Source of the DNA: Candidatus Moranbacteria bacterium GW2011_GWE2_35_2-
GTDB lineage: Bacteria > Patescibacteriota > Minisyncoccia > Moranbacterales > UBA9337
DNA length: 64,000 nt
NCBI GenBank assembly: GCA_000990585.1
Contig: LBQD01000001.1
Location: 62,965-126,964, forward strand
Direction of reading: 5' to 3'
A program made the translations under genes and the position numbers. Below are positions 1,425 to 44,829 of this stretch, piece after piece; the stretch's first letter is position 1; the number at the start of each line of letters is the position of its first letter. Below the pieces are notes generated by a model. That model was not told the DNA's origin. It saw only the letters and a list, made by a program, of their open reading frames with translations, and did not search any database.

Positions 1425-2615
1425 ATGGCAGAGCAATTTAAGAGAGACAAGACCCATGTTAACGTTGGAACAATCGGACACGTTGATCATGGAAAAACAA
1501 CTTTGACCGCCGCTATTCTTCATGTGCTTTCTCTAAAAGGAATGGCAAAGGCAAGAAAAGTAGATGAAATTGATAATGCGCCGGAAGAAAGAGAACGCGG
1601 AATCACTATTGCTACCGCTCACTGTGAATATGAATCCGACAAAAGACACTATGCTCATGTTGACTGTCCGGGACATGCCGATTATATCAAAAATATGATC
1701 ACCGGGGCAGCTCAGATGGACGGAGCAGTTTTGGTTGTGAGCGCGACTGACGGACCTATGCCTCAGACTCGCGAGCACATTCTCTTGGCTCGCCAAGTAG
1801 GAGTGCCTGCTATTGTTGTTTTCATTAATAAAGTTGATATGGTTGATGATCCAGAATTGATTGATTTGGTTGAAGCTGAAGTTCGTGAACTTTTGTCTAA
1901 ATATGAATTTGACGGAGACAATGCAACCGTTGTCCGTGGAAGTGCTATTAAAGCTTTAGAATCTGCTTCCGTTGAAGATGAATCTGCAAAACCGGTAATT
2001 GATTTGATTGCTGCATTGGATGAAAAAATTCCTGATCCTATTCGAGATACAGAAAAGCCTTTACTTATGCCTATTGAAGATATTTTTTCAATTGAAGGGC
2101 GCGGAACAGTAGCTACCGGAAGAATTGAAAGAGGTGTTTTGAATTTGAATGACGAAGTTGAAATTATCGGAATCAAAGATACTCAAAAGACTGTTGTAAC
2201 CGGAATTGAAATGTTCAATAAACAATTGGATAAAGGAATGGCTGGGGATAATGCCGGAGTTCTCTTGCGAGGAATTAAAAAAGAAGATATTGAGCGCGGG
2301 CAGGTTATTGCCAAACCGGGTTCGATTACCCCGCATACTGAATTTGAAGGAGAAATTTATGTTTTAACAAAAGAAGAAGGCGGACGACATACCCCTTTCT
2401 TTAAGGGATATAAACCTCAATTCTATATTCGAACAACTGATGTTACTGGAGAAGTTATTCTTCCAGAAGGAACTGAGATGGTTATGCCTGGAGATACCGT
2501 GAGCTTGATTATTAAATTGGGATCACCGGTAGCGATGGAAGAGGGAATGAGATTTGCGATTCGTGAAGGAGGAAGAACAGTCGGTGCTGGTATTGCTACC
2601 AAGATTATTAAATAA
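1425..2615 (+). CDS. tuf: Elongation factor Tu
   Basis: [27 protein letters not shown]... A GTPase over its full length. The ATG at 1425 is preferred over the upstream TTG at 1386. Confidence 0.95.
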
Positions 2616-2629
2616 ATTTGTTGATGTTT

Positions 2630-2656
2630 TTCGGGAGCGGAGCAACTGCTCCCGAA
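2630..2656 (+). promoter_or_regulatory. Perfect 9-bp stem hairpin between tuf and rpsJ (leader/attenuator-like)
   Basis: TTCGGGAGC-ggagcaact-GCTCCCGAA. No T-run follows, but TATAAT-like sequence does. Confidence 0.4.
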
Positions 2657-2677
2657 AGTATAATTATAAAATTTGAA

Positions 2678-3001
2678 ATGACGAATAAATCAGAAGAACA
2701 ATCAAGAGTAAGGATTAAGATCAAGGCCTATGATAACAAAGTCATTGATCAATCTGCCAAGCAGATTGTTGAAACGGCTTTGCGTAGCGGTAGTGAAATT
2801 TCTGGACCGATTCCGCTTCCGACCGAGATTCACAAGGTTACTGTGAATAAGTCCACTTTTGTGCACAAAGACGCACGTGATCAATATGAAATGCGAGTTC
2901 ACAAGAGATTGATTGACATTATTAACCCGAAACCGAAAACGATTGATGATTTGACTAATCTTGATTTGCCGGCGGGAGTGGATATTGAAATTAAAATGTA
3001 A
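2678..3001 (+). CDS. rpsJ: 30S ribosomal protein S10
   Basis: [19 protein letters not shown]... matches S10. The internal ATG at 2678 is the preferred start. Confidence 0.93.
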
Positions 3002-3111
3002 CAAGAGATAGTCTGGTTAAAGTCCCGGTCGCGGGATACTCAACTGGCCAATAGATTCGAAAGAATAAAACTGGCTTTGGGTGAAAAAGCAGTTTTTTTA
3101 TTGAAAAAGAT

Positions 3112-3672
3112 ATGAAATTTATTTTAGGAAAAAAGATCGGGATGACAACTATATATGATGAACAGAAAGGCGCTTTAAATGTGACCTTGATTGAATGTGA
3201 ACCGAATATTGTGAATTGCGTTCGAAATATGGAAAAAGACGGATATACAGCTGTTCAAATTAAAACGAAAAAAACTTGCAATAAATCGCTTTGTCGTGAA
3301 ATGCGAGTGTCCGATGTTCAGATTAAAAAAGATGATAAAATTTCTTTGGATGTTTTTGAAATTGGAGATATTGTGAATATTCGTGGAATTACAAAAGGAA
3401 AAGGATTTCAGGGAGTAATGAAACGTCATGGATTTCATGGTTCCCCTGCTTCCCATGGACATAGGCACGATCATCGCGCCCCTGGTTCGATCGGAAGTGC
3501 TTTTCCGGAACACGTTATTAAGGGAAAAAAGATGGCAGGAAGAATGGGGACAAATAAATTAACAGTGAAAAATTTGGAAGTTGTATTTATTGATAAGGAA
3601 AATAATTTGCTCGCAGTTAAGGGAGCGATTCCGGGAGTTTCAGGAAGATTTGTTGAAGTTTTGGGAAAATAA
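3112..3672 (+). CDS. rplC: 50S ribosomal protein L3
   Basis: KIGMTTIYDEQ... and ...GKGFQGVMKRHGF match L3. Confidence 0.92.
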   Translation: MKFILGKKIGMTTIYDEQKGALNVTLIECEPNIVNCVRNMEKDGYTAVQIKTKKTCNKSLCREMRVSDVQIKKDDKISLDVFEIGDIVNIRGITKGKGFQGVMKRHGFHGSPASHGHRHDHRAPGSIGSAFPEHVIKGKKMAGRMGTNKLTVKNLEVVFIDKENNLLAVKGAIPGVSGRFVEVLGK

Positions 3673-3697
3673 GATGCAACGAAATTAAAAGAATTTT

Positions 3698-4339
3698 ATG
3701 GCAAAAATAACTATTCAAAATTTAAAGGGTGAGAAAGTCGGAGAGCTTAAACTTCTGGATGCTGTATTTGGATTGCCGGCTAATGATAGTTTGGTGCATC
3801 AGGTTTTTGTTTCAATGTCGGGAAATCGAAGGCAAGTAATCGCGCATGCAAAAGACAGAGGAGAAAGAGCTGGTTCGGGAAAAAAACCATGGAAACAAAA
3901 AGGCACAGGACGTGCCCGATCCGGAAGCGTGCGTAGTCCTCTTTGGAAAGGCGGAGGTGTTACCTTTGGTCCTACAAAGGATAGAAATTTTAAGTCAAAA
4001 ATCAACAAGAAGATGAGTCAAAAGGCTTTGAAAATTGTTTTAAGTGGGAAAGTTGCGGATAATTCTTTGATAGTTTTAGATGAATTGGCACTTGCTAAAA
4101 AGAAAACGAAACAGGCTGCTAGTGGATTGAAAAAACTTGGACTTAGTGGAAGTATTTTAATTGGATTTTCAGAAAAAGAAAAGGATTTTCAATTATTTTT
4201 TCAAAATATTGAAGGCGTATCAAATATCCCTGTTGAAGGTTTGAATGTATATGACATGCTTATGCGTAAGAATTTGGTTTTAAGTAAGGACGCTGTAAAA
4301 TATCTGGAAAAGAAATATTCTAAAGAAGAAAATAACTAA
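3698..4339 (+). CDS. rplD: 50S ribosomal protein L4
   Basis: KPWKQKGTGRARSGS...PLWKGGGVTFGP. Confidence 0.92.
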   Translation: MAKITIQNLKGEKVGELKLLDAVFGLPANDSLVHQVFVSMSGNRRQVIAHAKDRGERAGSGKKPWKQKGTGRARSGSVRSPLWKGGGVTFGPTKDRNFKSKINKKMSQKALKIVLSGKVADNSLIVLDELALAKKKTKQAASGLKKLGLSGSILIGFSEKEKDFQLFFQNIEGVSNIPVEGLNVYDMLMRKNLVLSKDAVKYLEKKYSKEENN

Positions 4340-4347
4340 GAAAAAAT

Positions 4348-4728
4348 ATGTCTCCAAGTAATGATGTAAAAAATGAAAATGAGAATAAAGCTGAGTTTAA
4401 GAATAAAGCTGATTTGAAAATGGAAACAAAAGAAGTTAAAAATAGTTTGGCGTATCGTTATTTGATTGCGCCATGGATTACCGAGAAATCTCACTCACAA
4501 ATGGCTTCGAATAAATATATTTTCAAGGTTTTCAAAAATTCTAATAAGAAAAATATTGCAGCAGCAGTGGAATCATTATATGGAGTTGATGTTATTGGAG
4601 TTAATACGGTTAGTATATCTTCTAAAAAAAGAAGATATGGAAAAACGATTGGCAAGAAATCTGCAATCAAAAAAGCAATGGTATCATTGAAAGAAGGAGA
4701 TAAGATTGATATTTTTGAAGGAGCATAA
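4348..4728 (+). CDS. rplW: 50S ribosomal protein L23 (N-terminal extension, or the true start is at the internal M near 4420)
   Basis: AYRYLIAPWITEKS... L23 core; position after L4. Confidence 0.85.
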   Translation: MSPSNDVKNENENKAEFKNKADLKMETKEVKNSLAYRYLIAPWITEKSHSQMASNKYIFKVFKNSNKKNIAAAVESLYGVDVIGVNTVSISSKKRRYGKTIGKKSAIKKAMVSLKEGDKIDIFEGA

Positions 4729-4756
4729 TAATTTTTTATCAACTAAGAGTTAAAAT

Positions 4757-5098
4757 ATGTCACGAAGTTTAAAAAAAGGTCCTTATGTGGATGAAAGGAT
4801 TTTGAAAAAAATTTCTAATAGAGCCGCCGGAGATAATTCAAGAATAAAGACATGGTCACGTTCTTGTACAGTTACGCCGGAAATGGTTGGAATTACATTC
4901 GAAATTCATAATGGAAAAATTTTTGTTCCTGTGTTTATTACTGAGGATATGGTAGGTCACAAATTCGGAGAATTTGCTCCAACTAGAACTTTCTTCCGTC
5001 ATGGAGGGAAGATGCAAAAGGAACAAGAATTAGCAGCTAAACAGAAAGAAATTGATACCGCGAAGGCAATTAAGGCGGATAGCGTAAAAAAGAAATAA
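4757..5098 (+). CDS. rpsS: 30S ribosomal protein S19
   Basis: [12 protein letters not shown]...TWSRS...HNGK...[20 protein letters not shown]. Confidence 0.93.
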
Positions 5099-5139
5099 GA
5101 AATTAGAAATTAAGAATAATTAGGAATTATATAAATCCA

Positions 5140-5715
5140 ATGAAGGTTAATGCAAAATTAAAAAATTTAAGAGTTTCTCCTCGCAAAGTTAGACTGACTA
5201 CTGAGTTAATAAAAGGTATGGAGGTTGGTGATGCGATAGATCAAATAAGCGCTAATATAAAGCGTGCCAACGAGCCTATTATTAAGCTAATCAAGAGCGC
5301 TGTTGCCAGTGCGGAGAATGATTTTGGTTTGGATGCGAGCAATTTGTATATTTCTGATATTCGTGTCGATGCCGGGATTACGTTAAAGAGATGGATGCCT
5401 CGGGCATATGGACGAGCTACACAAATTTTGAAAAGAAGTTCTTGTGTTAAGCTTACGTTAAATGAAATAGTTGAGGGGAAAAACAGAAAATCAAAACAGC
5501 AAATTGATAAAGAGAAAAAAGCGAGAGAAAAGTCTGTAAAGATTGCTGAAAAGGAAATTACTGAAGGCAAAAAAGAATTAAGCGAAAGAGTTGAAGAGAA
5601 AAAGGAATCTATTTTGACGGATGTAAAAAAAGAACATCATGAAGTTGAAGCGAAAAGAAAAGAAAGCAGGCAATCCGGATGGACAAATAAAATTTTTAGA
5701 AGAAAATCAAGCTAG
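5140..5715 (+). CDS. rplV: 50S ribosomal protein L22 with a ~80-aa K/E-rich C-terminal extension
   Basis: SPRKVRL...MPRAYGRATQILKRSSCVKL is the L22 core. A charged low-complexity tail follows. Confidence 0.9.
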   Translation: MKVNAKLKNLRVSPRKVRLTTELIKGMEVGDAIDQISANIKRANEPIIKLIKSAVASAENDFGLDASNLYISDIRVDAGITLKRWMPRAYGRATQILKRSSCVKLTLNEIVEGKNRKSKQQIDKEKKAREKSVKIAEKEITEGKKELSERVEEKKESILTDVKKEHHEVEAKRKESRQSGWTNKIFRRKSS

Positions 5716-5762
5716 GAATTAAGCGTAAATCAATTAAGTTGATAATTTAGTAAAGAAATAGC

Positions 5763-6590
5763 ATGGCGATTAAAGTTTACAAAAGAAATACTGCCGGGCG
5801 AAGAAATATGTCGATTGTGAAACCCGACAATCTTACTGATAAAAAACCAGAGAAATCTTTGCTTGCGAAAAAAAGCAAAAAATCAGGAAGATCTCATGGA
5901 AAAATTTCTGTGCGTCATATGGGTGGCGGACATAAGCAAAAATATCGAGTTATTGATTTTAAACAGAATAAACTTGGTATTTCCGGAAAAATTGAAGCAA
6001 TTGAAAAAGATCCAAATAGGAGCGCTTTGATAGCTTTGGTTTATTATAAGGATGGAGAGAAGCGGTATGTTATTGCTACTGAAAATATGAAGAAAGGGCA
6101 AGAAATAATTACAGATGAAAAAGCTCCATTAAAAGAGGGAAATAGATTGAAATTGAAAAATATTTTACCAGGAACTGTTATTTCCAATATTGAGATTGTT
6201 CAAGGAAAGGGAGGGCAAATGGTTAGAAGTGCTGGATCGGAAGCGACATTGATGGGTGTTGACAATAAGATGGCACAGATAAAATTGTCATCCGGAGAAA
6301 TAAGGTTGATTAACTGTCAATGTTATGCAACAATAGGAAAGGTTAGTAATTTTGAGCACAATGCGATTCGAATTGGAAAAGCAGGAAAGAGTCGTTGGTT
6401 GGGAAGACGTCCGGTAGTTCGAGGAAGCGCAATGAATCCGGTTGATCATCCACACGGAGGAGGAGAAGGTCGTCAAGGAATCGGATTGAAGTATCCTAAA
6501 ACTCCTTGGGGAAAACCAGCATTGGGAAAAAAGACTAGAAGAAGCAAGAAACATAGTAGTAAATATATAATTAAGCGAAGAACGAAATAA
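5763..6590 (+). CDS. rplB: 50S ribosomal protein L2
   Basis: GGGHKQKYRVIDF...HPHGGGEGR. Confidence 0.95.
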   Translation: MAIKVYKRNTAGRRNMSIVKPDNLTDKKPEKSLLAKKSKKSGRSHGKISVRHMGGGHKQKYRVIDFKQNKLGISGKIEAIEKDPNRSALIALVYYKDGEKRYVIATENMKKGQEIITDEKAPLKEGNRLKLKNILPGTVISNIEIVQGKGGQMVRSAGSEATLMGVDNKMAQIKLSSGEIRLINCQCYATIGKVSNFEHNAIRIGKAGKSRWLGRRPVVRGSAMNPVDHPHGGGEGRQGIGLKYPKTPWGKPALGKKTRRSKKHSSKYIIKRRTK

Positions 6591-6597
6591 TAAGGAT

Positions 6598-7239
6598 ATG
6601 GGAAAAAAGGTTAATCCAATAGGAATAAGACTGGGAATTACCACTTCGTGGAGGTCTAAATGGTTTGGCGGAAGAAATTTTGCCAAGAATTTGAAAGAAG
6701 ATGTGCAAATTCGCCAAGCAATAATGAAACAATGGAAAGCAGCAGCGATTGCTGATGTTAATATTGAAAGAAATTCGGGAATGATTAAGGTTATCATTCT
6801 TACGTCTCGACCTGGAATGTTAATTGGACGTGGAGGAACCGGAATCGAAGATATTAATCGTTTGATTAAACAAAAGTTTTTTGCAGGCAAGAAGATTGAA
6901 TTGAAAGTTGAGGTAAGGGAAATTCGTCAGTTTGAAGAAAATGCCCAGTTGGTGGCGCAACAAGTTGCGGAGCAATTAGAGAAAAGAATGCCGTTTCGAA
7001 GAGTTTTGAAATCTACGTTGGATCAGGTGAGAAAGAATAATAAGATAAAGGGAGTGAAAATTGAGGTATCCGGAAGATTGGGAGGAGCAGAAATGTCCAG
7101 ACGCGAGTGGCTTTCTAAGGGTACTATCCCGTTACACACTCTTCGCGCCGACATTGATTTTTCCAGAGCGACTGCTATGACCACCTATGGAGCTATCGGA
7201 GTGAAGGTTTGGATTTATAAAGGGGAAATATTTGAATAA
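6598..7239 (+). CDS. rpsC: 30S ribosomal protein S3
   Basis: MGKKVNPIGIRLGITTSWRSKWF... KH and S3-C domains. Confidence 0.95.
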   Translation: MGKKVNPIGIRLGITTSWRSKWFGGRNFAKNLKEDVQIRQAIMKQWKAAAIADVNIERNSGMIKVIILTSRPGMLIGRGGTGIEDINRLIKQKFFAGKKIELKVEVREIRQFEENAQLVAQQVAEQLEKRMPFRRVLKSTLDQVRKNNKIKGVKIEVSGRLGGAEMSRREWLSKGTIPLHTLRADIDFSRATAMTTYGAIGVKVWIYKGEIFE

Positions 7240-7240
7240 A

Positions 7241-7340
7241 TTTTACAAATTACTAATTTATTTACGAATATACTAATTACTAATAATATCTGATTGGCAA
7301 TTGGTATATTCGTACCTGATTGGTAATTAGTAAACCAAAA
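7241..7340. repeat. Structured AT-rich spacer between rpsC and rplP. It carries the TACTAATTA(C) motif twice directly and once inverted, and a 10-bp inverted repeat
   Basis: tacgaatata(7264-7273) pairs with tatattcgta(7305-7314). tactaattac(7271-7280) pairs with gtaattagta(7324-7333). ctgattgg is present twice. Confidence 0.6.
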
Positions 7341-7343
7341 GAG

Positions 7344-7757
7344 ATGTTAATGATGCCGAGAAAAGTTAAACACCGAAAAATACACCGCGGAGGAGCTATC
7401 AGAGGAGTTTCCACTCGTGGAGGTAGTGTTAGTTATGGAAAATTTGCTTTGAAAGCTTTGAGTAGTGGTCTTATTTCTGCGCGCCAAATTGAATCAGCCA
7501 GACGTGCGATGACTCGCTATGTGCAAAGAGGTGGAAAGATTTGGATAAGAATTTTTCCAAGCAAACCGATGACAAAAAAAGGAGATGAAACTCCTATGGG
7601 AAAAGGAAAGGGAAGTGTGGATCATTTTGTTTCCAAGGTAAGAGCGGGAAGAGTTATGTTTGAGATGGATGGTGTTGATAGAAGTGTAGCAAAAAAAGCG
7701 ATGCAATTGGCGGCATATAAACTGGGAATAAAAACTAAATTCGTAGAAAAAGACTAA
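7344..7757 (+). CDS. rplP: 50S ribosomal protein L16 (start ambiguous between 7344 and 7353)
   Basis: MPRKVKHRKIHRG...GKGKGSVDHFV... matches L16. Confidence 0.9.
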   Translation: MLMMPRKVKHRKIHRGGAIRGVSTRGGSVSYGKFALKALSSGLISARQIESARRAMTRYVQRGGKIWIRIFPSKPMTKKGDETPMGKGKGSVDHFVSKVRAGRVMFEMDGVDRSVAKKAMQLAAYKLGIKTKFVEKD

Positions 7758-7761
7758 TTTT

Positions 7762-7953
7762 ATGAATATTAAGGAAATTAAAGAAAAAAATTTTATTGAG
7801 CTTGGAAAGATGCTCGCAGAAAAAAGGAGTGAATCGCTGAAATTACGTTTTGATATTCAATCCAAACAAGCCAAGACTCATAGAAAATATCGTGATTGCA
7901 AGCGTAATATTGCTAGAATAATGACGGTTTTAAAAAATAAGGAAGTAAAATAA
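7762..7953 (+). CDS. rpmC: 50S ribosomal protein L29
   Basis: 63 aa; L29-like: L...SLKLRFDIQSKQ.. Position after L16. Confidence 0.85.
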   Translation: MNIKEIKEKNFIELGKMLAEKRSESLKLRFDIQSKQAKTHRKYRDCKRNIARIMTVLKNKEVK

Positions 7954-7975
7954 TATTTTTGTGTGAATAAATAAT

Positions 7976-8245
7976 ATGACAAAAATTACCGAAAAACAAA
8001 GCAGCAGCATTAAGGACGCATCAAAGAAAAAGATTAGCGGGGTTGTTATGAGTGATAAAATGGATAAAACCGTAGTAGTGATGGTTAATACCCTTAAAAC
8101 GCATAAAAAATATTTGAAAAAATATCTGTCTACGAAAAAATATAAAGTTCACGATGAAAATAATGTGAAAAAAGTCGGTGATAAAATTGATTTCATTGCG
8201 TGTCGGCCGGTAAGCGGAGGAAAAAAGTTCACAGTAGTCAAATAG
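7976..8245 (+). CDS. rpsQ: 30S ribosomal protein S17
   Basis: GVVMSDKMDKTVVV...HDENN...GDKI... OB fold. Position after L29. Confidence 0.88.
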   Translation: MTKITEKQSSSIKDASKKKISGVVMSDKMDKTVVVMVNTLKTHKKYLKKYLSTKKYKVHDENNVKKVGDKIDFIACRPVSGGKKFTVVK

Positions 8246-8272
8246 TGATTTGTAAATTGTAAGCTAATATTT

Positions 8273-8638
8273 ATGATACAAGCAGAGACAAAATTAAGAG
8301 TTGCGGATAATTCAGGCGCGAAAGTGATTGAATGTTTTAAAGTTTTAGGAGGAAGCCGTCGAAGGTATGCCTATGTTGGAGATGTTATAGTGGCATCTGT
8401 AAAATCATCCGAGCCGAGAGGATCGGTTAAAAAAGGTGATAAGGTAAAAGCTCTTATTGTGAGACAAAAGCAATCATTGCGAAGAAAAGACGGATCACAT
8501 ATTAGATTTGATGAAAATGCGGCTGTGATTGTGGAAGGGATAGAGCCGAAAGGAACGCGTGTATTTGGTCCTATTGCCAGAGAAGTAAAGGAGAAGGGAT
8601 TTAGTAAGATAGCGTCATTGGCAGTTGAAGTATTATAG
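8273..8638 (+). CDS. rplN: 50S ribosomal protein L14
   Basis: [17 protein letters not shown]... Confidence 0.95.
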
Positions 8639-8664
8639 AAATATATAACGATTAGAGTAATTAT

Positions 8665-8973
8665 ATGAAGATAAAAAAGGGAGATAAAGTTCAAATAATT
8701 TCCGGAAAAGACAAAGGAAAGAACGGAGTTGTTTTGCGTTCAATTCCGATTCGGGAAAGAATTGTTGTTGAAGGCATAAACATTATTAAAAAGCATTCTC
8801 GAGCGAGAAAAGAAGGAGAAAAAGGAACGCGAGTTGAAATTCCTGTTTCCATTTCTATTTCCAATGCGATGCTGGTTTGTCCTAAATGTGAAAAATCAAC
8901 CAGAGTCGGATATAAAATCGTAGATGAAAAAAAGTTTAGAATATGTAAGAAATGTAAAGAAGAAATTCAATGA
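8665..8973 (+). CDS. rplX: 50S ribosomal protein L24 with a C-terminal CxxC...CxxC zinc ribbon
   Basis: MKIKKGDKVQIISGKDKGK.. KOW motif; CPKC...CKKC. Confidence 0.88.
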   Translation: MKIKKGDKVQIISGKDKGKNGVVLRSIPIRERIVVEGINIIKKHSRARKEGEKGTRVEIPVSISISNAMLVCPKCEKSTRVGYKIVDEKKFRICKKCKEEIQ

Positions 8974-9512
8974 AAATAACACCGCTTAAAACTAAATATA
9001 AAGAAATAGTTTCTGAAATGAAAAAAGAATTTGGATATTCGAATGTTATGGCTGTCCCAATAATTCAGAAAGTTGTTGTTAATGTTGGAATCGGAAAGAT
9101 AAATAAAGAGAATGATAAAATTGAAGAATTACTTGTCGCTTTGGAGGCTATTACGGGGCAAAAACCAGTGAAAACTCGCGCCAAGAATTCAATTGCTGGA
9201 TTTAAAACGAGAAAGGGAATGGAGATTGGAGTAAAAGTTACTTTGCGTGGTGAGAAGATGTGGAGTTTTCTCGATCGATTGATTAATGTTGCTTTTCCAA
9301 GAACGAGAGATTTTCAGGGAATAAAAATAAGCGGAGTTGACGAGTATGGAAATTTTAGCGTTGGAATCAAGGAGCATCTCGTTTTTCCTGAAATTTCCGC
9401 TGAAAAAACCAAGAATCTGTTTGGACTTCAGATGAATATTCAGACAACCGCGAAAAACAAGAAAGAAGGAGAGAGACTGTTTCAATTATTGAAGTTTCCA
9501 TTTTATAAATAA
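8970..9512 (+). CDS. rplE: 50S ribosomal protein L5
   Basis: ...ITGQKPV.TRAK.SIA.FK.R.GM.IG.KVTLRG..M..FLDRL. Confidence 0.93.
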   Translation: MKITPLKTKYKEIVSEMKKEFGYSNVMAVPIIQKVVVNVGIGKINKENDKIEELLVALEAITGQKPVKTRAKNSIAGFKTRKGMEIGVKVTLRGEKMWSFLDRLINVAFPRTRDFQGIKISGVDEYGNFSVGIKEHLVFPEISAEKTKNLFGLQMNIQTTAKNKKEGERLFQLLKFPFYK

Positions 9513-9554
9513 TATAATTTTTTTCAAATAATTAAGGAAGTTTAAGCTAAAAAA

Positions 9555-9740
9555 ATGGCAAAAAAATCAACCCAAGCAAGAGCAAAAAAGACACCTAAAT
9601 TTTCCACTCGAGAAGTGAGACGTTGTTGGAAATGTGGAAGAAAAAATGGATATTTGAGAAAATTTGATATTTGCCGAATTTGTTTTCGGGAATTGGCAAG
9701 TAAAGGAGAAATTCCAGGAATAAAAAAGAGCAGTTGGTAA
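9555..9740 (+). CDS. rpsZ: 30S ribosomal protein S14 type Z (zinc-binding)
   Basis: 61 aa; CWKCGR...CRIC. Confidence 0.9.
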
Positions 9741-9825
9741 TAAAATGTTAAAATGTTTAAAACGTTAAAGCCGTTATAAACGATTAGAACGTATAGAACA
9801 AATTAGAACAAATTAGAACAAACTT
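9741..9825. repeat. Spacer with a tandem 11-nt repeat (acaaattagaa x ~3) and a palindromic gttaaaatgtttaaaacgttaaa segment
   Basis: agaacaaattagaacaaattagaacaaac is read directly. Confidence 0.6.
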
Positions 9826-10236
9826 ATGTTAGATCCAATCAGTGACATGTTAACAAGAATCAGAAACGCCCAAACGGCAGGTCGAAGCGTTGTTAGAGTG
9901 CCTTCTTCAAAGGTAAAGTTTGCGGTTGCGAAAATTTTAAAGGAAGAAGGTTTTGTCAGTGCGGTTGAACTTATGAAAACAGATAAAAAATTTGATTTTA
10001 TGGAAATATCTCTGAAATATGATTTTGATAAGGATACCAATCTGAAAGTTCCCGTTATTAGTGGAATTCAAAGAATAAGTAAGGAAGGACAGAGAATTTA
10101 TGTGAAAAAAGGAGAAATTCGCAGAGTGAAAAATGGTATGGGAGTTTCAATAATTTCAACGTCAAAGGGTGTTGTTTCAGGAGAAAAAGCGCGAAAAGAT
10201 GGACTGGGAGGAGAATTAATTTGTGAAGTTTGGTAA
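9826..10236 (+). CDS. rpsH: 30S ribosomal protein S8
   Basis: DPISDMLTRIRNA... Confidence 0.93.
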   Translation: MLDPISDMLTRIRNAQTAGRSVVRVPSSKVKFAVAKILKEEGFVSAVELMKTDKKFDFMEISLKYDFDKDTNLKVPVISGIQRISKEGQRIYVKKGEIRRVKNGMGVSIISTSKGVVSGEKARKDGLGGELICEVW

Positions 10237-10278
10237 TATATCAGACGAATAAGCCTAATATAAGATGTATCTAAATTT

Positions 10279-10818
10279 ATGAGCAGAATAGGAAAAAAAC
10301 CGATTGAAATAGTTTCTGGAGTCGAGGTTAAAGTTGAATCCAATACTGTTTCAGTAAAAGGAGCCAAAGGAAATTTGGAGTTTGTTTTTCGTCCGGAAGT
10401 TTCTGTTAAAGTTGAGGATAATTTGGTCAAGGTTGAGAGAAAGGCCAAATCAAAATTAGGATCTTCTTTATGGGGAACAACCAGTAGGATTATAGCGAGC
10501 ATGATTAAAGGAGTTTCCGAAGGATTTGAAAAAAAATTGGAGCTTAATGGGGTGGGATATCGTATGGAAGTTGCTGGGAAAAAAATAAAATTGGCCTTGG
10601 GATTCTCTCATCCGGTAGAAGTTGAAATTCCGGAGGGGATTAGCGCTTCAATTGAGAAAAATGTTATGATTATTTGCGGGATTGATAAGCAGAAAGTTGG
10701 ACAATTTGCAACTAATATTCGCGCGCTCAAGCCGGTAGAGCCGTATAAAGGAAAAGGTTTTAAATATGTTGGAGAAATTGTCAGACGAAAAGAAGGGAAG
10801 AAAGCATCATCTGATTAA
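10279..10818 (+). CDS. rplF: 50S ribosomal protein L6
   Basis: MSRIGKKPIEI..GV.V......V.VKG.KG.L. Two L6 domains. Confidence 0.93.
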   Translation: MSRIGKKPIEIVSGVEVKVESNTVSVKGAKGNLEFVFRPEVSVKVEDNLVKVERKAKSKLGSSLWGTTSRIIASMIKGVSEGFEKKLELNGVGYRMEVAGKKIKLALGFSHPVEVEIPEGISASIEKNVMIICGIDKQKVGQFATNIRALKPVEPYKGKGFKYVGEIVRRKEGKKASSD

Positions 10819-10856
10819 GCCGTTTAGTTTAGTATCACTATCATATAATTACAATT

Positions 10857-11207
10857 ATGAATAAAAAAAGCATATTAAGATATCAAAGGAGAAAAAAGGT
10901 TCGCGCTAAAATATCCGGGACTGCTAAGAGTCCGCGTCTTTCTGTTTTTAGAAGTTTGCGAGGAGTTTATGTTCAGGCTATTGACGATCAAAATGGAAAA
11001 ACGATAGCGTCTGCTCAATGGAAAGAGGCAGTGGGGAAAGCTAAAAGGAATAATATCGAAAGAGCTAAAGAGGTTGGAAAGTTGATAGCAGAGAAATGCT
11101 TGAAATTGAATGTTTCCAAAGCGGTTTTTGATAGAAATGGATATAAATATCATGGAAAGATTAAGGCTGTGGCTGAAGGTGCCCGCGAGGGAGGATTAAA
11201 GTTTTAA
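10857..11207 (+). CDS. rplR: 50S ribosomal protein L18
   Basis: PRLSVFRSLR..YVQAIDD..G.T... Confidence 0.9.
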   Translation: MNKKSILRYQRRKKVRAKISGTAKSPRLSVFRSLRGVYVQAIDDQNGKTIASAQWKEAVGKAKRNNIERAKEVGKLIAEKCLKLNVSKAVFDRNGYKYHGKIKAVAEGAREGGLKF

Positions 11208-11273
11208 AATTCTTTATGAATTACTAATTAAGTGTTAATATACTAATTACGAATTTTACAATTTTTATAATTT
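11208..11273. repeat. Second copy of the ~35-nt AT-rich element (aattactaatt-N8-atatactaattac) between rplR and rpsE
   Basis: gaattactaattaagtgttaatatactaattacgaatt. Compare 7247-7280: aattactaatttatttacgaatatactaattac. Confidence 0.6.
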
Positions 11274-11786
11274 ATGGATAAAAATAAGGAAAAAAAGGGG
11301 AATAAATTTGGCAGAAAACGAAAGGAAAAGCCCGAATTTGATCAGAAACTATTGGATTTAGCTAGAGTTACTCGTGTGGTTAAAGGTGGGCGCCGTTTTC
11401 GATTCCGAGCCACATTAGTTATCGGAGACCGAAAAGGACGAGTTGGTGTTGGTGTTGCCAAGGGTGCCGATGTTTCTGACGCAATTGGTAAAGCGCTTAA
11501 TGATGCTAAGAAAAAACTTATTACTGTTAATATTGTAAAAGGAACTTTGCCGCATGATGTTTCTTGTAAATTGGGAAGCGCAAAAGTTTTAATAAAACCG
11601 GCGACCAAAGGGCGTGGTATTGTTGCCGGAGGAGCGGTGCGGGCGGTTATGGATTTGGCAGGTGTGCATGATGTCGTTTCAAAGTCTCTCGGAACTTCAA
11701 ATAAGTTGAATGTAGCGCGAGCAACAGTAGCAGCTTTGAAACAGTTGAAAATAACACCATTAAGGAAAATGTCTGCGGAAAAATAA
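11274..11786 (+). CDS. rpsE: 30S ribosomal protein S5
   Basis: ...RVTRVVKGGRRFRFRALVVIGD..G.VG.G..KG.DV..AI.KA.... Confidence 0.93.
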   Translation: MDKNKEKKGNKFGRKRKEKPEFDQKLLDLARVTRVVKGGRRFRFRATLVIGDRKGRVGVGVAKGADVSDAIGKALNDAKKKLITVNIVKGTLPHDVSCKLGSAKVLIKPATKGRGIVAGGAVRAVMDLAGVHDVVSKSLGTSNKLNVARATVAALKQLKITPLRKMSAEK

Positions 11787-11825
11787 TTTTTTATCAAGTA
11801 GTAGGATTTTGTAAAATTCAAAGTT

Positions 11826-12386
11826 ATGCAAATACACGAATTAAAAGTTAAAGCAAAGAAAAGCAGAAAGCGTATTGGACGCGGAGGTAAAAGAGGAACT
11901 TATTCCGGAAAAGGAAATAAGGGGCAGAAGGCGCGATCAGGAGGTAATGTCGATCCTTTGTTTGAAGGAGGAAGATCTTCTTTGGTTGATCGTTTAAAAA
12001 AAGTGCGCGGTTTTAAATCGATTGTTTCGAAAAAATTGGTATTGGGATTGGATGTTTTGGAAAACAAATTTGTCGATGGGGAAACTGTAAATTTAAAAAC
12101 TTTGGTGGCGAAAAAAGTTTTTCGTGAGAGTGAAATAAAAAATGGAGTAAAAATTTTGGGAAATGGAGAAATTACCAAGAAAATTTTAGTAGATGGTGAA
12201 ATTTTAACTTCTGATTCGGCAAAGACGGCTATTATAAAGGCGGGAGGAAAAGTTGCGGGAGAATCAAAACGAGGAAGAGAAAGAATAGCGGATAAGATGA
12301 GAAATATAGAAAAAAAAGCGGAAAAGAAAATTGAGGAAAAAATAGAGAAAAAGCCTAAAAAAAAGACAATAGCAAAAAAGAAATAG
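11826..12386 (+). CDS. rplO: 50S ribosomal protein L15 with a K/E-rich C-terminal tail. No L30 gene lies between rpsE and rplO
   Basis: RKRIGRGGKRGTYSGKGNKGQKARSG... Confidence 0.9.
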   Translation: MQIHELKVKAKKSRKRIGRGGKRGTYSGKGNKGQKARSGGNVDPLFEGGRSSLVDRLKKVRGFKSIVSKKLVLGLDVLENKFVDGETVNLKTLVAKKVFRESEIKNGVKILGNGEITKKILVDGEILTSDSAKTAIIKAGGKVAGESKRGRERIADKMRNIEKKAEKKIEEKIEKKPKKKTIAKKK

Positions 12387-12411
12387 TATAGTTAAAATCA
12401 CTTCATATACA

Positions 12412-12443
12412 AAAATCCTGATCAAAAGTCAGGATTTTTGTTT
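12412..12443 (+). terminator. Rho-independent terminator after rplO
   Basis: AATCCTGA-tcaaaag-TCAGGATT followed by TTTTGTTT. Confidence 0.75.
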
Positions 12444-12470
12444 GACAAATTACTTTTTTAGTTATATGAT
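12442..12470 (+). promoter_or_regulatory. Sigma70-like promoter for typA
   Basis: TTGACA-17nt-TATGAT. Confidence 0.5.
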
Positions 12471-12641
12471 TATCAAGTTATGATTATTCTGCTTTTTATC
12501 GGGCAGTTTTTTATTCGTATTTATCTTATTTAGAAATTACGCGCTTGAAAAATATTCGTTCGGTTTTTTGAAAAAATATTTTTTTGAAAGATTTAATGCT
12601 TTTTATTAAAACGTGTAAATCCTATTATTTATTTAAAAATT

Positions 12642-14423
12642 ATGGAAATTAGAAATATTGCAATTATTGCTCATGTGGATCATGGAAAAACCACCATTAC
12701 CGATGCGATTTTGCGTCAAACCGGAATGGTGAGTGACGAAGGGATTTCGATGGATAGCAATGCCTTGGAGAAAGAAAGAGGGATTACGATTTATTCAAAA
12801 AATACATCCATTTTTTATAAGGACACAAAAATCAATATTGTGGACACGCCGGGACATGCTGATTTTGGAAGTGAAGTGGAACGTGTTTTACGTTCGATTG
12901 ATAGTGTAATTTTGGTAGTAGACGCGCAGGAAGGACCGATGCCGCAAACGCGTTTTGTACTTAAGAAATCTTTAGAACTAGGACTTAAGCCTATTGTAGT
13001 GCTTAATAAAATAGACAAGCCAGCTGCTCAGCCGGAAATTGCCAAGGAGCAAGTTTTTGAATTGTTTTTAGATTTGGGCGCCAGTGATGAACAATTGGAA
13101 TTTACAACTGTATATGCGATTGGGAGAGAAGGAATTGCCAAAATGAATTTAGATGATGATTCAAAGGATTTGATGCCGCTTTTGGATACAATCTTGAAAG
13201 AAGTGGCGCCTGCAAAATCTGATACAACCGTGCCATTTCGAATGCAACCTTTTTCTTTAGGATATGACAATTTTCTTGGGCGCTTGGCAATTGGAAGGGT
13301 ATATGAAGGAAAAGTGAAAAGCGGAGATGTAATAATCAAAAAACCGAATGGAGAGGTTCGTAAAGGGAAAATTATCAAGATTCAAACTTTCAAAGGATTG
13401 GTAAAAGAGGATGTTTCCGAGGCGATTGCCGGTGATATTGTGATGGTGGCGGGACTTCCGGATATTTTTATCGGAGAGACAATTTGTGAAAACGAAGACC
13501 AGCAACCGCTTCCGGCGATCAAAGTTGATGAGCCGACAATTTCTTTGAATTTTATGGTCAATGATTCGCCGTTTGCCGGACGGGAAGGGAAATTTGTTAC
13601 TAATAAACAAATTCGCGAAAGGTTGGAAAAGGAATTGGAAGTTAATGTGGGCTTGCGGATTGATTTTTCTTCTGATTCATATAAGGTTTATGGACGCGGG
13701 GAATTACATATTGCCGTGTTGCTTGAAAATATGAGAAGAGAGGGTTTTGAAATTCAGGTTTCTCAACCGCAAGTTATTATTAAAGAAGAAGATGGAAAAA
13801 AACTTGAACCATTCGAAGAAGTTACTGCGGATGTTCCCGAAGCATTATCAGGATCAGTGATTGAGAAAATAGGAAAAAGACAGGGGATAATGACTGAAAT
13901 GAAGCAGAAAAATGGACAAACACGTTTGGTTTTTGAAGCACCAACGCGCGGAATTTTGGGATATCGAAGTCAGTTTATTGTTGATACGAAAGGCGAGGGA
14001 ATTTTTTCCAGCCGGTTTTTGGAATTTCGTCCGTATGTTGGAGAAATCAAGAAGCGCAATGTTGGTTCAATGATTTCAATGATTGGCGGAAAAGCATTGG
14101 GATTTTCTTTGGCAAATCTTCAAGAGCGTGGAGTTTTGTATATTGGAGCGGGAACTGAAGTGTATGAAGGGATGGTTATTGGTAATGTTTCCAAGGGGGA
14201 AGATATGTCGGTTAATCCAATCAAGGGAAAACAACTTACGAATATGAGAGCCAGCGGTACGGATGATGCAATCCAGCTTGTTCCTCCGACGAAATTGGAT
14301 ATTGAGAAAGGAATGGAATTGATGGCCGAAGATGAATATTTGGAAGTGACTCCGCAAAGTGTTCGTTTGAGAAAACAGTATTTGACCGAGAATGACAGAA
14401 TAAGAGCGAAGAGGAAAAAATAG
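12642..14423 (+). CDS. typA: Translational GTPase TypA/BipA
   Basis: [14 protein letters not shown]...[14 protein letters not shown]...NKIDKP. 593 aa. EF-G-like domain set without an EF-G domain IV. Confidence 0.88.
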
Positions 14424-36707: not shown

Positions 36708-36744
36708 ATGATTATACCGATTCGAATAACGAATTAAATGTGAA

Positions 36745-36810
36745 TCTGCGAATATAATAAGTGAAATTTATTTTTAAAATTATTCGTAGATTTGAATGTA
36801 TTCGCAGTTT
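36745..36810. repeat. Nested inverted repeat (CTGCGAATA ... TATTCGCAG, ~40-nt loop) in the spacer between the small Cys protein and the GT2 gene
   Basis: Read directly. Confidence 0.4.
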
Positions 36811-36819
36811 CGCATCGGT

Positions 36820-42031: not shown

Positions 42032-42215
42032 TATCGTGTTCGCTTTTTAGTTATTCATTATCATAGAGTTGCAGGTAGTTGCTTTTAATTGTTAGTTTGA
42101 TATATTGAAATTAGGAAAAATTAAATAAAAGGAGGAATTGTTCCTTAAAAACAAAGCAGCGCGCAGTCGTTAGCTTTTTTATTTTTTGGCAAATAACCCA
42201 TGTCAAGGAGGAAAT

Positions 42216-43580
42216 ATGACAACTCAACAATCAGTAGAAAGAGAAACATTTGTGCTTGACGCAAGTGTTTTTCTGCATGATCCAAGAGCGCTGGATCATC
42301 TGCGGAATTGCGATGTGGTGATTCCGTTTGCGGTGATTGAGCAATTGGACCAGATGAAGAAATTGGACGGAACAAAAGGGATGAATTCCCGGCGTTCGTT
42401 GCAATATCTGGATGATTTGCGACGGTTCGGTAGTTTTAGGGAGGGAATAAAAATTTCCGACAACCAGATAGTGAAAATATTGTCGACAGTACCGGAAATT
42501 ATTCGAAATATTTCGTGTCGCTTTGATCCGGAGATTCTTGAGCATCAAGTTTTGGCGGTGGCGAATTATTTACACCGGCAGAATGCAAAAAAGACCATTC
42601 TTCTTTCCAAGGATTTGCATATGCGCGTCAAAGCTAATATTCTCGGGATTAAAACGATGGATTTTGTTGAGACCGAGAAAAATGATGTTTTATTTGATAA
42701 CAGATTTAAGGGTTATCGAAACATCGATGCTCCCGAAGGTTTAATAAAGGATTGTTGTTGCAATGGGAGTCGGTATCCTTTGGAAAAAATTTTTAGTGAT
42801 GTTGATGGTATTGACCTAGCGGGATTGATGGCGAATGAGTTCGTCATAATGGCAAATGGCAATCGAAAATATCTTGGTCGTTATGACGGCAATGGCGATC
42901 TTTGCCGGCACAAATGGGAGATGCCCAATTCTTGCGGTATTTGGCCGAAAAATATTGAGCAGATAATGGCATATCATCTGCTCACAGATCCAAGTGTGCA
43001 GGTTGTAACATTGACCGGAAAAGCCGGAACCGGAAAGACGATGTTGGCCCTTTTGGCGGGATTATCCCAGACTTCAAATGGGAAAAAAATGTATGAAAAA
43101 ATTCTTTTTTCCCGGCCGATTATTTCGATTGGAAATGATTTGGGTTATCTTTCCGGGGATAAAGAAGATAAGCTTTCTTCCTGGATGAAGTCCTGCTCGG
43201 ATAACCTCTATTTTATTTTGAGCAGGGCGGAAAGTATGGGCATTAAAAGAAAGAAAAAGAATAAAAGCGAAGATGCGGTACAGTTGGAGGCGCTTACTTT
43301 TATTCGAGGAAGATCGATTTGCGGACGATATTATATTGTCGATGAAGCGCAAAATCTGACGCCATTCGAGGTGAAAACCATCATCAGTCGCGCCGGAGAG
43401 GGAACTAAATTTGTTCTTCTTGGCGACCCCGGACAGATTGATAATCCATATGTTGACGCGGAGAGTAATGGTTTGACACACGCAGTGAGAAAACTTTCTC
43501 CACTGTCGATTCACGGACACATTACTCTTTTGGGTGGTTGTCGTAGTAACTTGGCGGATGTTGCTGCGAGTTATTTATAA
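42216..43580 (+). CDS. PhoH2/YlaK: N-terminal PIN domain fused to a PhoH-like ATPase
   Basis: Walker A GKAGTGKT, DEAQN. PIN acidic residues at the N-terminus. AGGAGG lies 7 nt before the ATG at 42216. Confidence 0.85.
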   Translation: MTTQQSVERETFVLDASVFLHDPRALDHLRNCDVVIPFAVIEQLDQMKKLDGTKGMNSRRSLQYLDDLRRFGSFREGIKISDNQIVKILSTVPEIIRNISCRFDPEILEHQVLAVANYLHRQNAKKTILLSKDLHMRVKANILGIKTMDFVETEKNDVLFDNRFKGYRNIDAPEGLIKDCCCNGSRYPLEKIFSDVDGIDLAGLMANEFVIMANGNRKYLGRYDGNGDLCRHKWEMPNSCGIWPKNIEQIMAYHLLTDPSVQVVTLTGKAGTGKTMLALLAGLSQTSNGKKMYEKILFSRPIISIGNDLGYLSGDKEDKLSSWMKSCSDNLYFILSRAESMGIKRKKKNKSEDAVQLEALTFIRGRSICGRYYIVDEAQNLTPFEVKTIISRAGEGTKFVLLGDPGQIDNPYVDAESNGLTHAVRKLSPLSIHGHITLLGGCRSNLADVAASYL

Positions 43581-43605
43581 TCTCGCGGCTAAAAGTCGCT
43601 CAGGA

Positions 43606-43641
43606 GAGGGATTGCACGATGTGCAGTCCCTCATTTTTTTT
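43606..43641 (+). terminator. Rho-independent terminator after phoH2
   Basis: GAGGGATTGCAC-gat-GTGCAGTCCCTC + T8. Confidence 0.8.
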
Positions 43642-43645
43642 AACT

Positions 43646-43674
43646 TTGACCTGGATGCTTTTTTGGTGTATTAT
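43646..43674 (+). promoter_or_regulatory. Sigma70-like promoter for mreB
   Basis: TTGACC-17nt-TATTAT. Confidence 0.45.
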
Positions 43675-43740
43675 TGAAGAAAATAACAAAAAGAAATCTA
43701 AATATTTGAAGATGAGCCGAGAGGCTTGTTAAATTTTTTT

Positions 43741-44829
43741 ATGTCAAATAAATTCAGAAATATATATCGAAAAATAACCGGAAGTTTTTTTGGAAAATTT
43801 TCCAAAGATATTGGGATTGATTTGGGAACCGCTAACACTCTGGTTTATGTAAGCGGGAAAGGAATTGTTATTAATGAGCCTTCCGTGGTGGCGATTAATA
43901 AGAGAACCGGACAAATTTTGGCAATTGGAAAAGAAGCTAAAAAAATGGTCGGAAAAACCCCGGGACATATTGTTGCGATTCGTCCATTGGTTGATGGAGT
44001 AGTGAGTGATTTTGAGGTGACCCAACAAATGCTTCGATATTTTATTGATAAAATTCACAAGGATTCTTTTTCTTTACTTCCTCGTCCGCGCGTGTTAGTA
44101 GGAATTCCATCCGGAGTAACGGAAGTGGAGAAGCGCGCTGTAATTGATGCATCGCTCAATGCCGGAGCGCGAGAAGCGTATGTGATTGATGAGCCGATGG
44201 CGGCGGCAATCGGAGCGCGTCTTCCTGTAACTACTCCGGCAGGAAATATGATTGTTGATATTGGTGGAGGAACAGCGGAGATCGCTGTTATTTCTTTGGG
44301 CGGTGTGGTGGTTTCACGCAGTTTGCGGGTTGCCGGCGACGAAATGAATGAAGATATTGTGAGATTTTGCCGGGATGAATTTAATTTACTGATTGGAGAA
44401 AGAACAGCGGAAGATGTTAAAATTGCTATCGGTAGCGCCTATCCTCAACCGAAGCCGCTTTCAATGATGATTCGTGGGCGAGATTTGGTAAGCGGACTTC
44501 CGAAAGAAGTAAAGGCGAATGATGAACAAATTCGCGAAGCACTTTCTCGTTCCATTAGGATTATTATAAATAATATCAAGACTATTATCGAGGAAACTCC
44601 GCCGGAACTTATTTCCGATATTATGCAACGGGGAATAATTTTAGCGGGAGGGGGCAGTTTGATTCGCGGATTGGATAAATCAATTGCCAATCATACGGAA
44701 ATGCCGGTACGAATGATGGAAGATCCTTTGACGGCGGTGGTGCGTGGAACAGGAATTGTTCTTGAAGATTTGGATAATTTGAAAGAAGTTCTAATTGATA
44801 ACCAATATGACGATCGTCCTTTGAGGTAG
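43741..44829 (+). CDS. mreB: Rod shape-determining protein MreB
   Basis: DIGIDLGTANTLVYV. Actin fold. Confidence 0.92.
   Translation: MSNKFRNIYRKITGSFFGKFSKDIGIDLGTANTLVYVSGKGIVINEPSVVAINKRTGQILAIGKEAKKMVGKTPGHIVAIRPLVDGVVSDFEVTQQMLRYFIDKIHKDSFSLLPRPRVLVGIPSGVTEVEKRAVIDASLNAGAREAYVIDEPMAAAIGARLPVTTPAGNMIVDIGGGTAEIAVISLGGVVVSRSLRVAGDEMNEDIVRFCRDEFNLLIGERTAEDVKIAIGSAYPQPKPLSMMIRGRDLVSGLPKEVKANDEQIREALSRSIRIIINNIKTIIEETPPELISDIMQRGIILAGGGSLIRGLDKSIANHTEMPVRMMEDPLTAVVRGTGIVLEDLDNLKEVLIDNQYDDRPLR

Follow-up and report, generated by a model that had tools for sequence, protein, structure and literature searches.

The S10-spc ribosomal-protein (r-protein) cluster of Candidatus Moranbacteria bacterium GW2011_GWE2_35_2- lies on the + strand of a 64-kb stretch of contig LBQD01000001.1 (hereafter the window, meaning the whole stretch that was analysed) and runs from S10 at 2618 to L15 at 12386. 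Two of its intercistronic spacers, the 104-nt S3|L16 spacer (spacer 1, 7240..7343, + strand) and the 66-nt L18|S5 spacer (spacer 2, 11208..11273, + strand), share a repeated motif. We conclude that spacer 1 probably houses a gene-less palindromic element of ~ 85-90 nt, resembling a miniature inverted-repeat transposable element (MITE) or a doublet of repetitive extragenic palindromes (REPIN), that spacer 2 carries an older, one-armed remnant, and that the short form would be a non-autonomous derivative. This reading, which an earlier note on the same DNA had listed among its options as a miniature selfish insertion, is favoured because of presence/absence in close relatives, of a dispersed family with fixed arms and of gene-bearing relatives that carry the same arms as terminal inverted repeats. 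The architecture of the arms, their dispersal over genomes, the indel status in sister species and the inverted repeat-gene-inverted repeat form are all direct observations.

The motif common to both spacers consists, as the earlier note had described, of two blocks, AATTACTAATT (7248-7258 in spacer 1, 11219-11229 in spacer 2) and ATATACTAATTAC (7268-7280 and 11238-11250 respectively), separated by 9 nt in spacer 1 and by 8 nt in spacer 2. The 10-mer TACTAATTAC, for which at least four copies had been claimed, has three exact copies in the window (7271+, 7323- and 11241+), all within the two spacers, together with two one-mismatch copies at 7244 and 11222; the number was overstated but the excess over chance was not, as 0.01 copies are expected and 0 of 100 shuffles reach three. 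The inverted copy at 7323 and the long hairpin were also anticipated correctly, and the fold is stronger than described. Indeed, spacer 1 folds into a 37-bp hairpin of -34.7 kcal/mol (z = -7.8) on the sense strand compared to -24.7 kcal/mol on the antisense strand, and after GC correction it is the strongest fold of the 64-kb window (z = -5.3), while spacer 2 shows no significant fold (z = 0.19). The left arm of the hairpin (7244..7283, + strand) is made of the heptads TACAAAT at 7244, TACTAAT at 7251, TACGAAT at 7263 and TACTAAT at 7271, with an extra TACTAAT at 7277. The loop AAUAUCUG occupies 7285..7292 (+ strand) in the minimum free energy structure, and the right arm (7293..7334, + strand) brings ATTGGTA at 7300, ATTCGTA at 7308, ATTGGTA at 7319 and ATTAGTA at 7326, as well as the tip and the outer pairing. 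Inverted repeats of 22 nt (86%), 14 nt (93%) and 9 nt (100%) were detected in spacer 1, which is the form of a short non-coding element with terminal inverted repeats. An intrinsic terminator, with a GC-rich stem and a U-tract, is not what the spacer holds: the stem is AT-rich and is followed by AACCAAAAGAG, and a terminator scan of 6900-11600 was empty there.

When heptads are scored as TACNAAT (+) and ATTNGTA (-), spacer 1 displays nine units in the order +++++---- (7244-7332) and spacer 2 three units, +++ (11222-11254), and no further cluster of three or more heptads was found in the 64-kb window. In 200 second-order Markov simulations the largest cluster had 1.5 units on average and never more than 3. 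The arm follows a pattern of four heptads, TACNAAT-(T)-TACNAAT-N3-5-TACNAAT-A-TACNAAT (in search-string form TACNAAT-(T)-TACNAAT-N3-5-TACNAATATACNAAT, both strands), which fits 19 of the 21 arms examined. Within the heptads TAC and AAT hardly vary and the central N is unconstrained (T41, G22, C7, A6), and it is mostly at this N that the two arms of one element, spacer 1 included, differ from each other. The layout of the left arm of spacer 1 is the same as that of the inverted repeats around the GxxExxY genes described below. In spacer 2, the one-armed remnant (11215..11254, + strand) reads as a decayed left arm, TATGAAT TACTAAT TAAG TGTTAAT A TACTAAT, then TACGAAT, with neither right arm nor hairpin. 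Its ortholog in locus L082 is an intact left arm, TACTAAT TACTAAT TAAG TACTAAT A TACTAAT, likewise without a right arm.

Both spacers were next compared with those of relatives, that is the nearest GTDB representatives and genus-level relatives fetched via L14 and S3 (three-digit L numbers denote their loci). On blastn the DNA identity to the window is ~ 90% for L213/L214 and L215 and ~ 79% for L081-L083; L218 and L219, whose S3 is 100% identical, are the same genome as the window (100% nucleotide identity) and provide no strain-level variation. In L213, L214 and L215 the S3|L16 spacer is only 17 nt long (AGTTTAGAAAAACCATT or CGTTTAGAACAAACATT), and the blastn alignment of the window with the sister species stops at 7248/7249 and restarts at 7344. 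The same junction measures 35 nt in L081 and holds unrelated hairpins in L082/L217 and L083; since the spacer is non-homologous between species, covariation could not be sought among relatives for spacer 1. The L18|S5 spacer of the window has orthologs in L081 (65 nt) and L082 (63 nt); L213 keeps 35 nt of it and L215 15 nt, and a different sequence takes its place in L083. Given that spacers 1 and 2 are missing or shortened in sister species, both elements are dispensable indels. The remaining spacers of the operon are near-identical among the window, L213 and L215, save the S10|L3 spacer of L213, which has a family member of its own, with ~ 80 nt of extra TACGAAT units and a hairpin, absent from the window and from L215. 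Presence/absence at orthologous sites, as is typical of a MITE, is hence found for spacer 1 and for S10|L3 of L213. Judging from these alignments, the element of spacer 2 appears to be older than that of spacer 1, and the family has probably been active within this clade. The premise of the earlier note that rpsC-rplP and rplR-rpsE are normally contiguous holds in the sister species but not in many Moranbacteria-like genomes, which have enlarged spacers at many junctions.

The r-protein loci fetched through L14 constitute a sample without motif bias, and among them ++++---- palindromes are observed at L14|L24 in L002, at S10|L3 in L003 and L011, and at L5|L14, at L6|L18 and after L15 in L008, where the three lie within 8.7 kb. 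In total, 13 heptad clusters were counted in ~ 0.32 Mb of loci from the candidate phyla radiation (CPR, Patescibacteria; one locus belongs to Saccharibacteria) compared to 1 weak cluster in ~ 0.64 Mb from other phyla. Metagenomes were also scanned with the pattern TTACTAATTN{6,14}ATACTAATTAC; the matches listed include many unrelated repeat families and 8-mer tandem arrays, and the window's own genome is not among them, the scan giving no genome-wide count. The left arm of the window is identical to that of L132 at 36/37 positions and to that of L153 at 36/38, including the TTACGAAT linker, which lies outside the search pattern. Among the matches listed, near-identical arms sit in spacers between co-directional genes of many kinds: between an epimerase and CpsB, between PsbP-like and MurJ, between S8 and L6, among PilB/PilT/PilC, between a response regulator and L19 or RecJ (arm upstream of RecJ), beside thymidine kinase (TK) and upstream of EF-G. 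The r-proteins of L156 are only 52-63% identical to those of Moranbacteria, hence the family spans distant lineages. No description of such a heptad-arm family was found in the searchable literature.

A longer form exists in which one co-oriented gene of ~ 130 aa lies between a + arm and a - arm. The gene encodes a GxxExxY protein of the PD-(D/E)XK type (PF13366 PDDEXK_3 / TIGR04256). Such loci were obtained from the motif scan (L172, L120/L113) and via protein homology alone (L204, L206, L212 and L220), and in all four of the latter the gene is bracketed by heptad inverted repeats. These measure 38 nt (95%) in L204, 38 nt (89%) in L206, 36 nt (97%, with TACAAAT units) in L220, and 17 nt (94%) plus 19 nt (89%) in L212, compared to 35 nt (86%) in L120 and 27 nt (81%) in L172, both found by the motif scan. 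A conserved PrgI/TraC-like/VirB4 operon shows both forms. Indeed, the gene-bearing element is found at TraC-like|VirB4 in L204 and at PrgI|TraC-like in L206, and L206 has at TraC-like|VirB4 a gene-less 76-nt palindrome and hairpin of the same TACNAAT heptads. In the same operon of L204, a 23S_rRNA_IVP four-helix-bundle gene (PF05635/TIGR02436) lies between PrgI and TraC-like within its own distinct inverted repeat of GAAT-like units (52 nt, 71%; 1303-1354 / 1739-1790), and gene-less palindromes of this GAAT-like type lie upstream of PrgI in L204 (636-885) and L206 (1763-2047). As GxxExxY and 23S_rRNA_IVP each come with their own repeat type, a specific gene-repeat pairing is favoured over a generic landing pad.

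In the GxxExxY alignment D72, E82 and K84 (D..ExK) are invariant, and the AlphaFold model (pLDDT 92) gives matches at the level of the fold to Cas4, lambda exonuclease, Hjc and tRNA-splicing endonuclease, with a TM of about 0.4-0.5. No solved structure was found by sequence search, and the scan of IMG/VR found no relatives. In the literature PDDEXK_3 is listed as of unknown function and PDDEXK_2 as a putative transposase (PMC3424549). Distant GxxExxY genes (31-33% identity; L230-L232) are likewise bracketed by repeats: a 16-nt inverted repeat TTGTCACACGGATTCG / CGAATCCGTGTTATAA in Treponema pTS1 (L230, 1449-1464 / 1894-1909), a ~ 22-nt direct repeat CAGATTTAATCCGTGTACCTAT on both sides of 1495-1869 in Fusobacteria pZRK30-1 (L231), and AATCC units in the flanks of the Persicobacter gene (L232). 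The repeats of pTS1 and pZRK30-1 have AATCCGTGT in common.

Two arms in inverted orientation form one element, seated in intercistronic spacers of many Patescibacteria. Taken as a mechanism, the short form would derive from the longer one and lack autonomy, in the manner of a MITE or a REPIN, and would presumably be mobile in trans. A protein reading the heptads would copy or maintain the gene-less form, the enclosed GxxExxY nuclease being the obvious candidate. The element would be co-transcribed with the operon and give a 37-bp RNA stem 10 nt before the L16 start; cleavage of this stem by RNase III could then allow the host to tolerate selfish or neutral DNA without needing it as a regulator. 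The stem is possibly a substrate of RNase III and a putative processing site, and no RNase III gene (rnc) was found among the ten further open reading frames (ORFs) of the window that were scanned. A further-reaching proposal, which we advance only tentatively, is that the four-heptad arms may be the cognate ends of an unrecognised class of selfish elements with a single gene, that of the widespread GxxExxY nuclease. By recognising the heptads, this nuclease would copy, maintain or excise the gene-bearing and the gene-less form alike, and a parallel system with different repeats would serve the 23S rRNA intervening sequence (IVS) protein genes. Were this true, CPR would possess in the heptad-arm/GxxExxY system their equivalent of REPIN-RAYT or, should the system act on RNA, an mRNA equivalent of rRNA intervening sequences.

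The element shares features with several known systems. In the REP/REPIN system with RAYT of Pseudomonas and E. coli, short extragenic palindromes are scattered and the RAYT gene is flanked by inverted REPs (PMC3116915, PMC3337134). As there, palindromes occur here in operon spacers, the unit is made of two inverted repeats, the associated gene is flanked by the same repeats and co-transcription with host genes is expected. Unlike there, the arms are four TAC-N-AAT heptads with no GTAG/CGTC head, the enclosed gene is a ~ 130-aa PD-(D/E)XK GxxExxY gene and not an IS200/IS605-type (Y1) tyrosine transposase, and the element is hosted by CPR bacteria, whose genomes are very small. The 23S rRNA IVS of Coxiella burnetii has a 28-bp inverted-repeat stem with heptameric tandem repeats, IVSs sometimes contain a small ORF, and their excision by RNase III is harmless to the host (PMC4990558). 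Here too a selfish insert would lie in a highly transcribed unit, with terminal inverted repeats forming a long stem, heptamer repeats and a small ORF in some copies, and the 23S_rRNA_IVP-family gene of L204, inside its own inverted repeats, shares an operon with a GxxExxY gene. In contrast to the IVSs, the element is located between protein cistrons (rpsC and rplP) and not in an rRNA helix, and its ORF is GxxExxY and not an S23p four-helix bundle. Hence, as both a GTAG-headed REP and a tyrosine transposase are lacking and the location is outside rRNA, we set the element apart from both systems. Like the restriction-endonuclease-fold proteins Tn7 TnsA and Rpn/YhgA-like PDDEXK_2, GxxExxY is associated with the ends of an element, but it is much smaller, stands alone and has no known activity, and the structural likeness is at the level of the fold only. 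The Correia elements of Neisseria are AT-rich inverted-repeat MITEs of ~ 100 nt, present or absent in close strains, whose mRNA hairpins are cut by RNase III. The present element resembles them in being an AT-rich intergenic inverted-repeat element of ~ 100 nt with a (predicted) mRNA hairpin and presence/absence in close relatives, and differs from them in that its arm is a heptad array and not a single terminal inverted repeat and in that neither a target-site duplication nor a parent insertion sequence was identified. The longer relative with the same arms does enclose a gene, but GxxExxY is not among the known transposases, and no case of movement was observed.

Several observations weigh against the reading of spacer 1 as a selfish insertion. 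The flanks ATTTTACAAA / AAACCAAAAGAG compared to the empty site AGTTTAGAAAAACCATT offer no readable target-site duplication, only an ambiguous A-run. L081 has a possible right-arm remnant, CGTAATTAG, at S3|L16, and an insertion in the lineage of the window or a deletion in its sisters would both fit. The 64-kb window has two heptad clusters only, both in one operon, and no GxxExxY homolog was found in it by tblastn. Identical GxxExxY proteins are always found in a single context (P0133 on 14 contigs, P0178 on 22), so no recent transposition was caught. Moreover, L132, L153, L172 and L120 come from the motif-seeded scan, and this part of the sample is therefore biased. Finally, the window hairpin has 4 U.G pairs vs 1 A.C, and its sense fold is the more stable one by 10 kcal/mol, which would fit selection on RNA as well.

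This last point belongs to the strongest of the alternatives, an intercistronic RNA hairpin selected by the host as a processing or stability element (RNase III site or barrier to 3'-exonucleases) that might uncouple the S10-S3 part of the transcript from L16 onward, the motif being merely stem material. Besides the very strong fold and its sense bias, it draws on the position of the element, 10 nt ahead of the L16 start, and on the recurrence of sequence-unrelated hairpins at S3|L16 in L082/L217, L083, L003, L004, L008 and L016. We nevertheless consider it unlikely, given that the element is missing in sister species whose other spacers are near-identical, and that the same arms are found partnerless in spacer 2 and around genes elsewhere. 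Furthermore, no excess of G.U pairs on the sense strand is seen across 14 family members (19 vs 22), hence nothing points to selection on RNA. In the L002 element, the left arm consists of TACGAAT units only and the right arm of TACTAAT units only, which leaves a mismatch at every N; it is therefore the TAC/AAT letters that are conserved and not the base pairing. For the window copy alone a host-selected processing hairpin is possible, and it finds no support across the family.

It is also rather improbable, somewhat more so than the RNA hairpin, that local turnover accounts for the whole pattern, AT-rich spacers growing by slippage and template switching and their likeness arising by convergence or, now and then, by ectopic conversion, neither a mobile element nor a dedicated protein being involved. 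Such turnover would suit the many Moranbacteria-like loci whose spacers are enlarged by genome-specific short repeats, for instance the CAAATTGT arrays of L016, the GTTGTAAG hairpins of L081 and the ATTAGAAC units of the S14|S8 spacer in the window, as well as the tandem ATTACTAA arrays seen, among the matches listed, in many metagenome contigs. What it does not explain is the recurrence, at r-protein identities of only 52-63%, of a fixed four-heptad arm in a fixed orientation (TACNAAT first, ATTNGTA second), the 36/37 identity to the L132 arm, which extends over a linker outside the search pattern, the enclosure of one specific gene family by inverted repeats of 89-97%, and the L204 23S_rRNA_IVP gene with a different type of inverted repeat in the same operon.

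The empty sites and the non-ribosomal contexts contradict the two remaining alternatives, as does the lack of Rfam or promoter signals. An internal promoter or transcription-factor operator, in which a regulator or RNA polymerase would recognise direct repeats spaced by some two turns of the helix and drive or gate transcription of rplP and rpsE, is very improbable: AATTACTAATT is indeed a 5+1+5 palindrome and spacer 2 contains one 9/12 sigma-70-like match (TTAATA-16-TACAAT, 11235-11262), but sigma-70-like sites are not enriched in 6900-11600 (15 vs 13.3 ± 4.3 in shuffles), L215 lacks the site and L213 retains half of it, and at other loci both orientations of the element are found between co-directional genes. 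The autoregulatory r-protein operator, or protein-binding site, that the earlier note had put forward, where the motif would mimic rRNA and its binding by an r-protein would repress translation downstream, is the least credible of all, as only the location in the S10-spc cluster and the motif common to both spacers speak for it, whereas the element is not conserved even at 90% nucleotide identity, is found in other CPR between genes for pili, capsule, cell wall and DNA repair and has no Rfam leader match, and the conserved structured element at S10|L3 (see below) is a better leader candidate. Like the leaders of the S10, spc and alpha operons it sits in the S10-spc cluster; unlike them it is not conserved at its junction (no relative shares spacer 1, and spacer 2 is lost from L215 and replaced in L083), is not r-protein-specific and belongs to no Rfam family.

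CPR genomes rank among the smallest and most compact known, and repeats are assumed to be rare in them. On the reading of spacers 1 and 2 as selfish insertions, a palindromic family would colonise intercistronic spacers even in the r-protein operon and turn over between species that are ~ 10% diverged. GxxExxY, a large family whose function is not known, gains a first concrete genomic context from its occurrence between heptad inverted repeats with dispersed gene-less copies, and the nuclease-repeat pairing is now specific enough for direct testing. In practice, such spacer motifs should not be taken for r-protein operators, and the heptad pattern can be used for annotating elements in CPR metagenome-assembled genomes.

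As for the genes that delimit the two spacers, all on the + strand, spacer 1 lies between rpsC (S3, 6598..7239; Pfam Ribosomal_S3_C and KH_2) and rplP (L16, 7344..7757; Ribosomal_L16), whose start ATGTTAATGATG is found 10 nt past the hairpin and is kept in relatives, and spacer 2 between rplR (L18, 10857..11207; Ribosomal_L18p) and rpsE (S5, 11274..11786; Ribosomal_S5 and S5_C). The gene order at 4348-7239 is L23-S19-L22-L2-S3, which is unusual as rplB is relocated behind rplV. This order is common to the window, L001, L002, L081-L083, L213 and L215, and L003 and more distant relatives retain L23-L2-S19-L22-S3. In the window, L15 follows S5 with no L30 gene in between. Intergenic DNA makes up ~ 3.9 kb of the 64-kb window, about 6%. 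No tRNA or tmRNA genes were found in the window, and Rfam at the gathering threshold gave no matches over its whole length, rRNA included; at E ≤ 1 over 2600-12700 the sole match was a spurious miRNA-precursor-like hairpin.

Other repeats and structured elements were observed in the same operon. The S10|L3 spacer of the window (3002-3111, core 3010-3111) contains a structured element of ~ 100 nt which is found near base-for-base in L081-L083, L213 and L215 and has no Rfam match. Its hairpin 1 is CTGGTTAAAGTCCCG...CGGGATACTCAACTGGCC and its hairpin 2 ends in a U-run just before the L3 start. This spacer is long (108-974 nt) in every Moranbacteria-like locus, and the element is a candidate r-protein leader or attenuator. 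The S14|S8 spacer (9741-9825) is conserved in all genus-level relatives, with 3-4 tandem ATTAGAAC units, and the S19|L22 spacer (5099-5139) holds ATTAGAA/ATTAGGAA units; the units of both spacers are loosely like the GAAT-type units around the 23S_rRNA_IVP gene of L204. In L081, the hairpins at 5078-5165 (L22|L2) and 8004-8085 (L14|L24) have a common GTTGTAAGTTGTAAG 3' arm and an ACAAC/AACCAATAACC 5' arm and represent a different, genome-specific type of repeat. At EF-Tu|S10 (tuf-rpsJ), L215 carries a 62-nt GC-rich hairpin insert (ttgccgtttttcgggagcggagcaactgctcccgaaag..., 2006-2067) where the window and L213 have 2-5 nt.

Among the matches listed of the metagenome scan, ~ 30 contigs of Ga0164313/15/18 (loci L085-L199, GC about 0.31) display another dispersed repeat, ttaaTTACTAATT(A/G)CCA(G/A)TATACTAATTACttgc...atattaaaaatatcccag; aaatagtaTTACTAATTAAAATAAAAAGCAATACTAATTAC marks a further repeat family. 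Elsewhere in the window, a second AT-rich palindrome lies at 36708-36819, upstream of a glycosyltransferase gene. It is made of NCGAAT units (gattcgaataacgaattaaatgtgaatctgcgaatataat // attattcgtagatttgaatgtattcgcagtttcgcatc), with folding energies of -31.3 kcal/mol for the + strand and -23.3 kcal/mol for the - strand, and could be related, in degenerate form, to the TACNAAT family. The strongest absolute folds of the + strand, -46 and -45 kcal/mol per 110 nt, are found at 42186-44829, inside a PIN/PhoH-like gene and just upstream of an MreB gene; each of these two ORFs has TTG as its called start and follows a spacer of 160-184 nt.

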